A DNA stretch of 32,000 nt from Massilicoli timonensis (GTDB lineage: Bacteria; Bacillota_I; Bacilli_A; Erysipelotrichales; Erysipelotrichaceae). Shown piece after piece: positions 6,001 through 18,000 of the stretch. The first letter of the stretch is position 1, and every line of letters begins with the position of its first letter. Made by a program: the position numbers. The DNA lies in contig NZ_LT963434.1 in the NCBI RefSeq assembly GCF_900199515.1, positions 1,053,272 to 1,085,271 of the forward strand, written 5' to 3'.

Positions 6001-9000
6001 AAATACGCGAGAAATAAAAACGTCGTGGTGATCGGCGGCAGCGGCAGCGGCAAGACAAGGTTTTTCGTAAAGCCTAATTTAATGCAGCTTCATTCTTCCT
6101 ACGTCTTGACCGACCCGAAAGGCACCGTCCTAATCGAGTGCGGAAAGCTGCTGCAACGGGCAGGCTACCGCATTAAGGTACTGAACACGATAAACTTTCG
6201 GAAAAGTATGCACTATAACCCCTTTGTCTATATCCGCAGCGAAAAGGACGTGTTAAAGGTTGTCAATACCCTTATCGTCAATACCAAAGGCGAGGGAGAA
6301 AAGAGCGCGGAAGATTTTTGGGTGAAAGCCGAGAGGTTACTATATTGCGCGTTGATCGGCTACATTTGGTATGAAGCCCCCGCCGAGGAAATGAACTTTA
6401 CAACGCTGCTTGAACTTATCAATGCAAGCGAAGCACGCGAGGACGACGAGGAATACCAAAGCCCCGTTGATCTGCTCTTTGCCGATTTGGAAGAACGCAG
6501 CCCCGACCATTTCGCGGTAAAGCAATATAAAAAATACAAATTGGCGGCGGGCAAAACGGCAAAGTCAATCCTTATTTCTTGCGGTGCGCGGCTTGCCCCT
6601 TTTGATATAGAGGAACTCCGGGAACTCATGTCCTATGATGAATTGGAACTTGACACATTGGGCGACCGGAAAACCGCGCTTTTCCTCATAATGAGCGATA
6701 CCGACGACACTTTTAATTTTGTTATCGCTATTTTGCAATCACAGCTTTTCAACTTGCTTTGTGATAAAGCAGACGACGAATACAACGGCAAATTGCCTGT
6801 TCACGTCCGCTTTTTGCTTGACGAGTTTGCGAACATCGGACAGATACCCCGCTTCGATAAATTGATTGCTACAATCCGCAGTAGGGAAATGTCCGCTTCT
6901 ATCATTCTGCAATCGCAGAGCCAGCTAAAAGCCATTTACAGGGACGCGGCAGAAATCATACTTGATAATGCCGACAGCACCTTGTTTTTGGGAGGACGTG
7001 GGAAAAATGCAAAAGAGATTTCGGATAACTTGGGACGGGAAACAATCGACAGTTTCAACACTTCCGAAAATCGCGGCACGCAGGTTTCTCATGGACTGAA
7101 TTATCAAAAATTAGGAAAGGAGCTGATGACACAGGACGAAATAGCAGTTATGGACGGTGGGAAATGTATTTTGCAGCTACGCGGTGTGCGTCCCTTTTTA
7201 AGCGACAAATACGACATCACGAAACACCCGAACTACAAATACCTTTCCGACTTCGACAAAAGAAACGCTTTTGACGTGGAACGGTATATGTCTACCCGTC
7301 CGGCAATCGTAAAGCCCGATGAAGCCTTTGACATATACGAAATAGATTTGTCCGACGAGGACGCAGCCGCCGAAGAATAACGGCGGCATTTTTCATTTTC
7401 CATAACATTTTTTGAGCCGCACAACGGCAGAAAGCGAGGTTTATATGGATTTCTTTAACAGCGCAGTTGGTGTATTGCAGACTTTGGTTATCGCGCTTGG
7501 CGCAGGTCTTGGCATTTGGGGTGCCATTAACTTAATGGAGGGTTACGGCAACGACAATCCCGGAGCCAATGCTCATGTGCCATAAAGTAACACCACAATA
7601 TGAAAGACGGTTATCCCCATTATTCCGTAATCTGTCAAGGTGATTTGACATTTCTCTCGAAGTATTGTATACTTTTCATGTGAGTATGAAAAATATGAAT
7701 TAAGGAGATGTTATACAATGTCCATGCCAAAGGGAAAGCACATATTTGGAACTGTTAAGGTTGGAGAGCGCGGGCAAATTGTCATTCCGAAAGAAGCGCG
7801 AGAAATATTTGACATAAATCCCGGAGATACTCTACTCGTTTTGGGAGATGAAGAACAAGGAATAGCTGTAGTCAAGGCCGATGTAATGAAAGAGGTTGCT
7901 GTAAAAATTTTGAAAGGGTTAGGTCATTTCAAGGGAGGCTATGATGATGAAAAATAGCTTTTCAAATATTTTGCCCTTTCTTTTAATTGCTGATTTGATT
8001 ATTCCGTTTGTATTAGCCCCCACTTACAAAGGCTATAGTCATTTGACACAAGTAATGAGCGTTTTAGGAAATTCAAAAGCACCGTTGCATTTAATCTATA
8101 ATATTTGGTTGGTTGTGTTTGGAGTTTCAATTTTAATCAGCACCTTGCAGCTATATCCTACTGTCGCACAAGTATCAAATTCTATATCCATAATGCTTTT
8201 TTCCGTCATTGTGATTTACGCCTTAGGCGGTTGTATTCTTTCCGGGATTTTTTCAGTTGGGGAAACCAAAAACCTTGAAACTTTTTCCGCAAAGATACAT
8301 GGTTATGGTTCAGTAATAGGTTTTCTACTTTTAACACTTGCGCCATTATTTGTCGGATTATACTTTTTCAAAGTGTCCAATGGGCTATTAGGAATTTTAT
8401 CTTTAATTTGCTTTATCTTTGCAATAGGTTTTTTTGCTCTATTTGTAATGGCTGATAAGCCGAATTATAAAGGAACAATAATTGCATTTGAAGGGCTATG
8501 GCAGAGATTATCCCTTTTAAGTATGTATCTTCCCATTGCAGCACTTTGTATTTTTCAGAAATAGCAAAGCCAGCCGAGCCAGTCAACGGTCAAGATGAAC
8601 GGCGCATACGCGCCGCCGTTGACAGCCCCGCCCGCCTTTGCAGATAGGCAATCAAGGAGGCGACAGCAAGGAGTGCTGCCGCCCCGCACTATTATCAGAG
8701 AGGGGGAATTTCCATGACCGAAGATGAAGCCTACAAAGTGCATATCCAATACACATTCAATGCCTTTTGCAAAATTGTCATTCGTCATGCAGCCATAGAT
8801 AAAATTTTGAAGCTGCGCCGGAGGTGGGAACGGGAAGTTTCCCTTGACTACTTGATGAATGAGAAGTTTGTCCAGCTTGCCGAGCCGGAGCAGCTTGAAG
8901 AATATCTTTTTACCGCCTGCGGCCAGACCGCCGTTCTGTACCATGCGGAACTTGCCGCCGCCCTTGCCCTCTTGCCGGAGCAGACACAGGAAGAAATTTT

Positions 9001-15000: not shown

Positions 15001-18000
15001 AGAACGGCTTTACCAATCTGCGCTGGTACACCGACGACGGCTTCTCCGGCGCAAACTTTCAAAGACCCGGTTTTCAAGCCATGCTTGCAGACATTGAAGC
15101 CGGGAAAGTGGGTACGGTCATAGTCAAGGACATGAGCCGGTTAGGGCGAAACTACTTGCAGGTAGGGTTTTACACGGAAATGCTGTTCCCCCAAAAGGGA
15201 GTGCGTTTTATCGCTGTCAACGACAATGTGGACAGCGCAAACGGCGGCATGGACAACGATTTTACCCCTCTGCGAAATCTGTTCAATGAATGGCTGGTGA
15301 GAGATACGAGCAAGAAAATCAAGGCAGTAAAACGAGCAAAAGGCATGAGCGGCAAGCCTGTTACCAGCAAGCCGGTCTATGGCTACCTCATGGACGAGGA
15401 CGAGAACTATATCGTTGACGAGGAAACCGCGCCGGTTGTCCAGCAGATATACCAGCTTTGCCTTGCCGGGAACGGACCGACCAAGATTGCCCGTATGCTT
15501 ACGGAGCAGCAAATCCCCACGCCGGGGACGCTGGAATACCGCAGGACGGGCAGCACCCGCCGCTACCACCCCGGCTATGAGTGCAAGTGGGCGACAAACA
15601 CCGTTGTTCATATCCTCGAAAACCGGGAGTACACCGGCTGTCTGGTAAACTTCAAGACGGAGAAGCCCTCTTACAAGGTCAAGCACAGCGTAGAGAACCC
15701 CATCGAGAAGCAGGCCATTTTCCCAAACCACCATGAGCCGATTATCGACACGGAAACATGGGAGCGCGTGCAGGAGTTACGCAAGCAGCGCAAACGCCCG
15801 AACCGCTATGATGAAGTGGGGCTGTTCTCCGGTATGCTGTTCTGCGCCGACTGCGGCCATGTGATGTACCAGCAGCGGTATCAGAACAAGAACCGCAAGC
15901 AGGACTGTTACATCTGCGGCAGTTACAAGAAGCGCACCCGCGACTGTACGGCGCACTTTATCCGCACCGACCTGTTGACCGCCGGTGTCCTCTCCAATCT
16001 CCGGCAGGTGACCGAATACGCCGCCAAGCATGAGAGCCGCTTTGTGAAGCTGCTTATCCAGCAGAACGAGATCGGCGGCAAGAGAAAGACCGCCGCAGCC
16101 ACGAAGCAGCTTGAACAGGCGCAGGAGCGCATTTCCGAAGTGAGCCGCATAATCAAGCGGCTGTATGAGGACAATGTGAACGGCAAAATCAGCGACGAGC
16201 GTTTCATGGAACTGTCGGCAGACTATGAGCAGGAGCAGCGGGAACTGAAAGACCGCGCCGCCGCTTTGCAGGAGGAACTGGACAAGTCGCAGGCCGCCAC
16301 CGTCAACGCGGAAAAGTTTATGGGGATTGTCCGAAAGCACCTTGCCTTTGAGGAACTTACCCCCACCCTCTTGCGGGAAATGATTGAGAAAATCGTCGTG
16401 CATGAGTGCAGCTATGACGAGAACGGCACCCGCAGGCAGGATATTGAGATTTATTACAGCTTTGTCGGCAAGATTGACTTGCCAGAATAACCGCCCGACC
16501 TATCCGACACAATGGCCAAGTGCCGGATAGGAACGGCAAAATTTTTTACACTTCTATTACTTCTTTATCGCACATCAATAAAAAGCCAGGGCATGAAGCA
16601 GCTCATGGCGGGCGGCGGCGTCGCTTTGATCGGCGGCACCCTTGTTCCGCTTCTTTCCAAACTTTTTGGATAATGCCTAAAACAAATACCACCCGCCGCG
16701 CCCTCTCGGAAACGGGAGGGCGCGGGAAAGGAGGGATTAACTTTTGATATGGCAGATGATTGAAGATTGGTTTCGTGGCATTTTGACAGACGGGATTTTA
16801 TCGAACCTCTCCGGCTTGTTTGACAGCGTAAATACAGAGGTTGGAGAAATCGCAACGCAAGTCGGCACGACCCCCGCCGGGTGGAACGCGGGCATATTCA
16901 ACATGATACGCAGCCTTTCGGAAAATGTCATTGTACCGATTGCGGGCGTTATCATTACCTTTGTCATGTGCTACGAACTAATCCAGATTGTAATTGAAAA
17001 AAACAATCTGCACGATCTCGACACTTGGATTTTCTTCAAATGGATTTTTAAGACCTTTGTTGCGGTGCTGCTGGTAACAAACACTTGGAACATCGTCATG
17101 GGAGTTTTCGACGTTACGCAGAGCGTCGTCAATCAGAGCGCGGGGGTTATCATATCCGATACAAGCATAGACGTTACCACCGTCATTACCGACATTGAAG
17201 CAAAACTCGACGCTATGAGCGTGGGCGGTCTTTTGGGGTTATGGTTTCAATCCCTCTTTGTAGGGCTTACCATGAAAGCCCTGTCAATCTGCATTATGCT
17301 TGTGGTGTATGGGCGCATGATTGAAATATATCTTGTAACGAGCGTTGCCCCTATCCCTATGGCAACAATGGTAAATCACGAATGGGGCAGCATGGGACAG
17401 AATTACTTAAAATCTTTGCTTGCGCTTGGTTTTCAGGCGTTTCTGATCTTGGTGTGTGTCGGCATTTATGCGGTGTTGATACAAACAATCGCAGCGACCG
17501 ACGACATTTCCGGCGCGATCTGGGCTTGCATGGGCTATACCGTCCTCTTGTGCTTTACGCTTTTCAAAACGGGAAGCCTTGCAAAGAGCGTCTTTTCGGC
17601 ACATTAAGGGGGTGAGTTATGATTTGAAAATCGGTTTAATCGACGTTGACAGCCATAATTTCCCCAACCTCTGCTTGATGAAGCTATCCGCGTATCATAA
17701 AGCAAAGGGGCATACGGTGGAATGGTGGAACGCAAAGGGGCGGTACGACCTTGTATATAAAAGCCGCGTCTTTACGGACACCTATTCCAAAGACACGATA
17801 ACCGTTACCAACGCGGAACAAGTTATTTTCGGCGGTACGGGCTACGACACGAAAAACCGCTTGCCGCCGGAAGTGGAACACAGTTACCCGGATTATTCTA
17901 TCTACCCGCAGTTTTTCGGGATTGCCTACGGCTTTTTAAGCCGGGGTTGTCCGAGAAATTGCGGGTTTTGCATTGTCAGCAGTAAAGAGGGACGCAAAAG

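Follow-up and report, generated by a model that had tools for sequence, protein, structure and literature searches.

In this work, a mobile element of 9,013 bp was found inside maff2, a gene of an integrative and conjugative element (ICE), in a 32,000-nt stretch of the Massilicoli timonensis contig NZ_LT963434.1. This whole stretch is referred to as the window; all coordinates are positions in it, and all listed features lie on the + strand. Judged by sequence comparison, the insert is very probably a resistance-free member of the backbone family of integrative and mobilizable elements (IMEs) described as IME_Rho_tet, and it sits at the preferred maff2 site of this family. Maff2 itself is a membrane protein of 71 aa, and its gene lies between virD4 and virB6 in a Bacillota conjugative element.

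The interrupted gene and its uninterrupted alleles

The insert covers positions 7570–16582 including one AA dinucleotide, and any register within the common A-run is equivalent. The open reading frame (ORF) from 7445 encodes MDFF...NDNPGA, i.e. 41 codons plus AA (MDFFNSAVGVLQTLVIALGAGLGIWGAINLMEGYGNDNPGA), enters the insert for five codons (NAHVP) and ends with the TAA at 7583–7585, giving a 46-aa fragment. Behind the insert, the translation of 16581–16673 reads KSQGMKQLMAGGG...KLFG-stop (in full KSQGMKQLMAGGGVALIGGTLVPLLSKLFG, then stop). Deletion of the 9,013 nt joins 7445–7569 to 16583–16673 in a single 71-aa ORF, which matches the Pfam family PF12750 (Maff2) over positions 1–70 of the 70-position profile (E 2.5e-40; 136.6 bits, cut-off 27). 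The rebuilt protein, used as a query, has thousands of homologues of ~71 aa, and two clusters are 100% identical to it. An earlier note on this DNA, made from the sequence alone, had claimed the insert coordinates, the halves of 41 and 30 residues and the in-frame restoration of a 71-aa ORF, and all of these were borne out, with a full-length Pfam Maff2 match. Its interpretation also stood in that the insert looks like an intact serine-recombinase IME, lies nested in the maff2 gene of a conjugative element, has a non-palindromic AA as its crossover and, on removal, restores the gene exactly. The aside that Maff2 is possibly pilin-like found no support. The protein is modelled as a generic two-helix hairpin (helices 2–36 and 39–70) with a predicted local distance difference test (pLDDT) score of 95.6, and a PDB search with this model gave no significant neighbour (E > 0.6 throughout), and none of its 50 best hits is a pilin.

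Uninterrupted maff2 alleles, which the earlier note had suggested looking for in metagenomes, were found on three metagenome contigs (L081, L082 and L083) that are 99.9%, 99.2% and 100% identical to the window flanks over 1,798, 2,365 and 1,135 nt, respectively. The alignments span the junction, and each contig holds the exact predicted joint GGAGCCAAAAGCCAGGG and encodes P0007, a Maff2 cluster 100% identical to the rebuilt protein. Furthermore, the rebuilt 216-nt maff2 is an exact substring of L083 (216/216 nt), and on this comparison the two halves of the split gene are undecayed. The alternative that there is no insertion, and that the locus normally encodes a 46-aa protein and a separate short one, has a practically negligible probability. 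No point in its support was found, and it is ruled out by the identical uninterrupted 71-aa genes on contigs of 99–100% identity, the full-length Pfam match and the thousands of ~71-aa homologues.

Excision in the family is indicated by a second type of junction. A scan of metagenomes for joined ends (right arm, AA, left arm) gave five human-gut contigs with the order recombinase, attP, cargo, and in two of the five the recombinase is 99% identical to that of the window. By their arrangement, these contigs represent circle joints or head-to-tail tandems of close relatives, and either requires excision. Thus, excision appears to occur in the family, because attP junctions of close relatives are found in gut metagenomes. 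The earlier note had also proposed a search for the IME at other sites, and one was found in L086, where the same left end, with the AbrB and DUF998 genes and 98.7% identity over 1 kb, occupies a non-maff2 site, ...ACACAGCCC-AA-TGCTCATGTGCC... In L094, near position 4064, a reverse-strand ICE segment (DUF3801, intact virD4, short maff2) abuts the middle of a recombinase gene that continues into an attP joint; this structure is either a real rearrangement or an assembly chimera.

Ends and attachment sites

The ends of the insert, TGCTCATGTGCCATAAAGTA and (as reverse complement) TATTGATGTGCGATAAAGAA, match at 15 of 20 positions, and AA adjoins each of them, which confirms the imperfect inverted repeats around a common non-palindromic AA described in the earlier note. 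Relatives were collected by a recombinase scan of species-representative genomes, which found 555; the best 80 of the 555 (L001–L080) were compared by tblastn with the window proteins. The 76 related right ends share the motif CTTTATC(G/A)CACAT-N5, followed by a dinucleotide in fixed register; this crossover dinucleotide is AA in 74 of the 76, and GA and AG occur in one locus each. The 3' half of maff2 (K-S-Q-G-M/I/V-K-Q...) adjoins 46 of the 76 right ends, with 40 distinct 40-nt flanks, which implies many independent insertions. The left ends read AA-TGCTCATGT...TAAAG and follow the ...DNPGA/S codons in 25 distinct maff2 alleles, and they occur in 11 other contexts. The complete related elements are 5.9–11.6 kb long (n=39). 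The description in the earlier note is far beyond chance coincidence, because the repaired junction recurs on three independent contigs and the ends recur, in the same register, in dozens of loci.

The deduced attP is CTTTATCGCACATCAATA-AA-TGCTCATGTGCCATAAAG, in which AA is exactly central in the 12-nt spacer of 13-nt inverted repeats. Such a central position would fit the expectation for the 2-bp crossover of a serine recombinase. The attB dyad CCC(G/T)G-N4-AA-N4-CAGGG corresponds to the codons for N-P-G-A-K-S-Q-G, a segment that runs from the inter-helix turn into helix 2 of the Maff2 model and is near-invariant at the protein level. In the non-maff2 sites, position −8 is still C in 82%, and positions +8 and +9 are still G in 93% and 71%, respectively. 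The preference of the recombinase is hence for a degenerate dyad, to which maff2 is the best fit. The right ends outside maff2 number 30 of 76 (~40%), so the linkage to a potential helper is a preference and not an obligation.

A short maff2 allele, which stops just past the attachment site (...NDNPGAKSQGMKQFMAN-stop) with unrelated sequence behind it, was observed uninterrupted in L094 and in the right flanks of L008, L039, L047, L065, L067 and L078, and similar short forms are present in L012 and L042 (...VMAN-stop and ...LMAD-stop). The short allele also serves as an insertion site, and it may be a scar of earlier recombination there. Additional maff2 sequence was found downstream of the IME right end in L018 (intact second copy, 5223–5700) and L030 (second N-fragment, 15556), which means that some ICEs carry more than one maff2 target.

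Gene content of the element

The features of the element and the adjoining ICE genes are given in Table 1. The gene list of the earlier note, with MobC and the relaxase, the organizer, the DnaC-like loader, a sigma/HTH pair and the recombinase last, agrees with the domain scans.

Table 1. Features of the maff2 element and of the directly adjoining ICE genes.
Feature	Position	Strand	Basis
virD4 3' part (~residues 100–594)	5893..7380	+	Pfam T4SS-DNA_transf/TraG-D_C/TrwB
maff2 5' part with AA copy (7568–7569, attL)	7445..7569	+	41 codons to NDNPGA
Left terminal inverted repeat (P' arm) TGCTCATGTGCCATAAAG	7570..7587	+	Motif after AA in 39 related loci
AbrB/SpoVT (MazE-fold) DNA-binding protein, 79 aa, cargo	7718..7957	+	Pfam MazE_antitoxin 7.5e-10; NCBIfam AbrB-family domain 4.6e-14
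DUF998 membrane protein, 207 aa, cargo	7941..8564	+	Pfam DUF998 2e-21; start overlaps AbrB-like gene
Sigma-70 region-4-like regulator, 140 aa, backbone	8714..9136	+	Pfam Sigma70_r4_2 1.1e-5, slightly below cut-off
HTH_16 protein, 65 aa, backbone	9129..9326	+	Pfam HTH_16 8.2e-17; kept in relatives
DUF4624 lipoprotein, 150 aa, second-slot cargo	9397..9849	+	Pfam DUF4624 2.2e-43; signal peptide with LTAC lipobox
Candidate origin of transfer (oriT), ~95 nt, nested inverted repeats	10261..10355	+	Upstream of mobC; no other non-coding block of the family is as conserved
MobC/NikA-like relaxosome accessory protein	10455..10874	+	Pfam NikA-like 3.6e-11, MobC 3.9e-5
Relaxase, MobA/VirD2-like nuclease domain, 545 aa	10837..12474	+	Pfam Relaxase PF03432 1.2e-14
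Cysteine-rich VLP protein, 128 aa	12464..12850	+	Pfam Cys_rich_VLP 8.3e-26
Replisome organizer	12923..13720	+	Pfam Phage_rep_org_N 1e-29; homology with relatives from 12962
DnaC/IstB-like AAA+ helicase loader, 280 aa	13717..14559	+	Pfam IstB_IS21 3.1e-13, Bac_DnaA 3e-5
TnpW-family small protein, 62 aa	14574..14762	+	Pfam TnpW 2.9e-7
TnpX-type large serine recombinase, 538 aa, last gene	14874..16490	+	Pfam Resolvase/Recombinase/Zn_ribbon_recom/DUF4368
Hairpin and T-run, terminator-like, family-conserved	16521..16547	+	3' of recombinase gene
Right terminal inverted repeat (P arm) CTTTATCGCACATCAATA	16563..16580	+	Same register in 76 related right ends
maff2 3' part, first two bases (16581–16582) AA copy (attR)	16581..16673	+	KSQGMKQ...KLFG-stop
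ICE virB6/TrbL_2 gene directly downstream	16744..17607	+	Pfam TrbL_2 7e-56

The element has its own integration and excision module, namely a recombinase in which the four Pfam domains are all present and the catalytic domain is TnpX-like. The N-domain of the recombinase (residues 8–123) matches the solved TnpX catalytic domain 2MHC with E 2.5e-51, Ser18 in the YPRLS motif aligns with the catalytic-domain serine of TnpX, and DUF4368 lies at the C-terminus, where the TnpX-type recombinases of L088, L091 and L092 also have it. The sequence is exactly that of WP_102268113.1 from Massilicoli timonensis (Erysipelotrichaceae), whose 90%-identity cluster has 14,053 members. The right boundary at 16580 lies 90 bp past the recombinase stop (16490). 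The element also has its own relaxase with a MobC/NikA-like partner, and type IV secretion system (T4SS) genes are absent: domain scans found no VirB4, VirD4 or VirB6 domains between 7570 and 16582. Therefore, the insert is an IME and not a conjugative element. The relaxase is 62–97% and the sigma-70 region-4-like regulator 69–99% identical among relatives, and the true start of mobC is likely the ATG at 10476 (132 aa).

The DUF4624 gene, whose product is annotated in the source as ‘DUF4624 family lipoprotein’, is separated from mobC by a non-coding stretch of ~600 nt. This stretch contains the block at 10261–10355, whose invariant columns were determined over eight loci drawn from all recombinase clusters, and which is almost invariant even where the MobC identity falls to 62–73%. 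It includes the inverted repeat I8 (10265–10272/10319–10326) and a terminator-like hairpin at 10290–10303; it has nested inverted repeats, in which CAAGTTTC...GAAACTTG surround CCGCAATTCTGCGG. By its conservation, the block is likely to be the oriT. The cargo gave no match to PADLOC and matched none of the resistance-gene models of NCBIfam, and no EF-G/Tet domain was detected in any ORF of the insert with Pfam or NCBIfam. The GC content is 37% at 7501–8500 compared with 55–60% for the backbone, which suggests that the AT-rich cargo was acquired separately.

Relatives and family assignment

The recombinases of the best 80 of the 555 relatives are 86–99% identical and come from dozens of genera. 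For comparison, the within-family recombinase identity reported for IME_Rho_tet is 85–100% (PMC12904643). In nearly all of the 80, the backbone order is sigma, HTH_16, mobC, relaxase, CysVLP, replisome organizer, dnaC, tnpW and recombinase. None of the 80 related loci contains the AbrB, DUF998 or DUF4624 gene of the window by tblastn; the AbrB and DUF998 pair is also present in L086 and L087. The relatives carry a 639-aa Tet(W)-family protection protein (NF033148; 1,285 bits, cut-off 1,100), Tet(O)-like with Tet(40), Erm(G), an erm-like methyltransferase, GntR with an ABC transporter, PadR, and others.

The published definition of IME_Rho_tet requires a recombinase and a relaxase with at least 50% identity and at least 90% coverage to WP_014078528 and WP_014078536, respectively, and in addition a ribosomal-protection tet gene no more than 10 coding sequences upstream of the relaxase (PMC12904643). 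As a proxy for the first reference, the recombinases of the tet-carrying loci L045, L004, L032 and L073 were used, which are 86–99% identical over residues 1–538; as a proxy for the second, the relaxases of tet-carrying loci are 67–97% identical to that of the window. Recombinases of 97–99% identity were also found in L007, L020, L022, L024, L057 and L070, which bear Akkermansia, Bacteroidales, Lentisphaeria, Gordonibacter and Brevinema labels (metagenome-assembled genomes or genomes). These non-Bacillota labels could be due to binning contamination or to a host range beyond Bacillota.

Proposed mechanism

We propose that the recombinase (14874–16490) would pair both ends of the element and cut at the central AA. 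The excised circle would carry the joint deduced as attP (in wider form ...CGCACATCAATA-AA-TGCTCATGTGCC...), and maff2 would be resealed as GGAGCC-AA-AAGCCAGGG. This excision step fits the sequence, and both types of product are seen in nature. TnpX was reported to catalyse excision and insertion without other proteins of its element, and by analogy a directionality factor would not be needed. The circle may be maintained by the replisome organizer and the DnaC-like loader. MobC and the relaxase would nick the oriT, probably in 10261–10355, and the T4SS would be supplied by an ICE. In the recipient, by comparison with the relatives, the recombinase would insert the element at CCC(G/T)G-N4-AA-N4-CAGGG, provided by the codons of the maff2 loop, or else at weaker look-alikes. 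The targeting of maff2 would thus put the element inside a potential helper.

Several points weigh against the family assignment and this cycle. The link to the family runs through proxy tet-carrying loci and not through WP_014078528 and WP_014078536 themselves, and the ribosomal-protection gene required by the definition of IME_Rho_tet is absent, so the window element would not be counted. The attP contigs could be head-to-tail tandems and not free circles. The excision, transfer and integration of the window copy itself are predicted from sequence comparison, the independence from a directionality factor is borrowed from the TnpX literature, and the oriT is a candidate defined as a conserved block.

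Host ICE and the second nested IME

The gene order DUF3801, VirD4, Maff2, VirB6 (TrbL_2), PrgI, VirB4 and NlpC/P60 matches the published Faecalibacterium ICE backbone table, and by this order the host element is probably a Tn5252-superfamily (MPF-FATA) ICE. Its virD4 is also interrupted. The ORF at 5953–7380 lacks the N-terminus; its similarity with the intact VirD4 of L081 (594 aa) begins at 5893 (residue ~100), and the 5' part of the gene lies upstream, outside the window. Positions 1–5892 are the right-hand part of a second IME with a TnpX-type serine recombinase, which ends at 5892 and is inserted in virD4 at about codon 100. Its recombinase gene and the VirD4 N-fragment are located upstream of the window, which includes its genes for TnpW, an RlmA-like methyltransferase, DUF3847, a MobA/MobL relaxase (2235–3881) and a DUF3991-Toprim-AAA_25 primase (3632–5797). 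Its attR reads ...CACTTGACAAAACGCTTCA|TGGGGCAAC, and the empty site in L081 reads GCACGT|TGGGGC. After excision, the virD4 site is predicted to read GCACGT-TGG-GGCAAC; virD4 is uninterrupted in L081 and L094. The loci L088, L091 and L092, which were retrieved via the methyltransferase at 867–1700, start with a VirD4 N-fragment of 101–105 aa ending ...EYGSARW|SA-stop and continue with a TnpX-type recombinase of 616–624 aa and then with the genes listed above, from TnpW to the primase. A VirD4 C-fragment closes this arrangement in L091 and L092; in L088, a remnant of 72 aa is all that is left of VirD4 there, and a further recombinase follows it. L091 harbours both nested IMEs, as the window does. 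In the window ICE, two conjugation genes are split by two different serine-recombinase IMEs, a nested ‘Matryoshka’ state that is well described for Bacillota ICEs (PMC5704250, PMC3158075).

Other genes of the ICE and of the second IME were observed in the window. Between virB6 and prgI, a 313-aa ORF (17579–18520) has a radical-SAM match below the threshold only; its counterpart in L082 (298 aa) has no Pfam family, and it is a conserved ICE gene. The 1,115-aa product of 27768–31115 is a polyvalent ICE protein (LPD34, ArdA, ArdC-N, Peptidase_M78 (IrrE-like), YodL, LPD26, DUF4316), a typical anti-restriction or establishment protein of such ICEs. The RlmA-like 23S rRNA methyltransferase gene at 867–1700 is extremely common (52,835 blocks of the assembly collection); its product scores 158 bits with the NCBIfam model RlmA(I) (cut-off 303) and is weakly similar to the G748 methyltransferases ChrB, Erm(32) and MyrA. 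L089 and L090, which are 99.9% identical to window 1–5921, are hybrid structures. Their left half is IME_Rho-like (Maff2 N-fragment, group II intron reverse transcriptase, MFS transporter, MobC, relaxase, CysVLP) and gives way near TnpW to the right half of the virD4 IME; none of the T4SS genes from virD4 to NlpC/P60 is present. Such hybrids suggest that the two IME families have recombined with each other.

Possible effect on the host ICE

While the element is integrated, maff2 is split, and the ICE would have a 46-aa Maff2 fragment and a C-half that lacks a conserved start. An ORF of 53 aa at 16512–16673 fuses IME sequence with this C-half, but the family does not conserve it, and the commonest right-end variant has an in-frame TAA. 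Moreover, read-through into virB6 would probably be reduced, and the hairpin and T-run at 16521–16547 may contribute to this.

It is quite possible, although we would not call it probable, that the insertion is parasitic or disabling. According to this explanation, maff2 is the best match to the recombinase target, the ICE is inactivated together with the virD4 insertion, and the IME uses co-resident conjugative elements in trans. The second IME leaves the window virD4 without its first ~99 codons, and many non-maff2 look-alike sites are used whose common feature is only the degenerate dyad. The unconserved 53-aa fusion ORF and the in-frame TAA give no sign of selection to keep the Maff2 halves expressed, and Brouwer et al. 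(PMC3158075) proposed nested elements as the cause of the non-transfer of Tn6103. On the other hand, excision is precise, and it probably happens often enough for empty sites and joints to turn up in metagenomes; no decay is seen in the split genes, and the same double nesting in L091 and L092 suggests a stable association.

In another explanation, the IME is a harmless hitchhiker or a genetic switch: induction of the ICE would trigger excision of the IME, maff2 (and virD4) would be rebuilt, the ICE would be transfer-competent when the IME needs the mating pore, and the IME would re-enter the ICE in the recipient. We regard this explanation as possible but doubtful. Both split genes are exactly rebuildable, with uninterrupted versions on near-identical ICE backbones; the maff2 halves are undecayed (216/216 nt identical to the intact allele), and attP joints exist in the family. 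Furthermore, the orientation of the IME is fixed and co-directional with the T4SS genes, and with the conserved terminator-like hairpin at its right end, the insertion would be polar. The coupling of excision to helper competence, which the earlier note had suggested, is plausible, but the idea that excision restores conjugation had already been published for IMEs in maff2, snf2 and traG, by Coluzzi et al. 2017 (PMC5357655) as well as by Guedon et al. 2017 (PMC5704250). However, regulated or coordinated excision has no supporting evidence in the sequence, in which the sigma/HTH genes are candidates only, and 30 of the 76 family right ends lie outside maff2. The virD4 gene is also split, so a single excision would not restore the transfer genes and two independent excisions would be needed. 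Transfer data point in different directions: ICESp2905 was reported to transfer with its IMEs, including the maff2 IME, in place (PMC5704250), and Tn6103 with three nested elements did not transfer detectably (PMC3158075).

The ICESp2905 transconjugants, which were reported to have the whole ICE and both IMEs (PMC5704250), would also be expected if maff2 were dispensable for conjugation and the IME rode passively in cis with a functional ICE, and the function of Maff2 is undefined in the literature. This is rather unlikely, as Maff2 is conserved beside virD4 and virB6, its loop is near-invariant at the protein level, and virD4, which is essential, is also split in the window. It is distinctly unlikely that the virD4 and maff2 IMEs excise coordinately under the control of the ICE or of the sigma/HTH genes of the IME, as a two-key recombinase-gated conjugation switch in which the resistance-free AbrB/DUF998/DUF4624 variant, as a form of the tet(W)-spreading backbone, would persist by symbiosis and not by antibiotic selection. 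Excision-coupled restoration as such is known from the literature; if the two-key switch is real, its demonstration and the coordination of two elements would be the new parts.

Significance

IMEs in maff2, the nested ‘Matryoshka’ arrangement and the excision-switch hypothesis have all been published already. Most tet(W) and tet(32) genes of gut bacteria reportedly lie on the backbone found here, and with ~14,000 public sequences in the recombinase cluster, the family is very abundant. The resistance-free copy, together with the relatives carrying erm(G), erm-like, ABC-transporter and PadR genes, makes the family wider than its tetracycline-resistance definition, and marker surveys that require the ribosomal-protection gene therefore undercount it. 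The family has at least two cargo slots. The motif CCC(G/T)G-N4-AA-N4-CAGGG can be used for the prediction of insertion sites and for the design of recombination assays.

Comparison with known systems

The canonical member of IME_Rho_tet is IME_RhoA2_183_maff2-1 from Roseburia hominis A2-183, with 10,695 bp and 11 co-oriented ORFs (Sidibe, Doublet & Leclercq 2026, PMC12904643). Terminal inverted repeats of ~21 bp, a 3' boundary 81–90 bp past the recombinase stop and 45% of copies in MAFF2 ORFs were reported for this family (PMC12904643). The window element resembles it in gene order and orientation, the recombinase as the last gene, mobC with the relaxase, two transcription-factor genes, the 90-bp 3' boundary, terminal repeats homologous to those of tet-carrying loci and the insertion in MAFF2. 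It differs in length (9,013 bp vs 10,695 bp) and in cargo: the first slot holds the AbrB-like and DUF998 genes, the second slot the DUF4624 lipoprotein gene, and there is no ribosomal-protection gene.

The streptococcal maff2 IMEs (IME_ScoC232_maff2_site1 and IMESp2907, in Tn5252-superfamily ICEs) are likewise serine-integrase IMEs that disrupt the maff2 of an ICE (PMC5357655, PMC5704250). Compared by description, IME_ScoC232_maff2_site1 shares the replisome organizer, DnaC and a MobP relaxase, whereas the hosts are Streptococcus and not Massilicoli timonensis, and two maff2 sites are known there. With the clostridial Tn4451/Tn4453, the window element shares the TnpX-type recombinase (E 2.5e-51), DUF4368 and a TnpW gene. 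A 2-bp crossover, a circular intermediate and a recombinase that alone integrates and excises are known for Tn4451/Tn4453 from the literature, and by analogy these would apply to the window element. In contrast, the crossover of Tn4451/Tn4453 is GA with low target specificity, compared with AA and a strong preference for one site here (46/76 in maff2); their TnpZ is of the MobV class, while the window element has MobC and a MobA/VirD2-like relaxase (PF03432), as well as replication-type genes.

Tn6104, Tn6105 and Tn6106 in Tn6103 of C. difficile R20291 (Brouwer 2011, PMC3158075) are several TnpX-related elements in the conjugation genes of one ICE, and the window has two nested IMEs. Tn6104 was shown to excise with a 2-bp repeat left in the circle and in the empty site, and a block of ICE transfer by the nested elements was suspected for Tn6103, as it may be here (PMC3158075). 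The target genes, content and host are different, and excision is experimental there, whereas the window element is known from its sequence. Finally, in skin/SpoIVCA of B. subtilis, fdxN/XisF of Anabaena and the prophages of ‘active lysogeny’, a large serine recombinase precisely removes an element and rebuilds the split gene, which is the likeness to the maff2 element; the window recombinase scores 99 bits with the NCBIfam XisF model (cut-off 375). The excisions in those systems are programmed by host development and are often terminal, whereas in the window the gene that is split is part of another mobile element, and the element inserted in it appears to be transferable itself.

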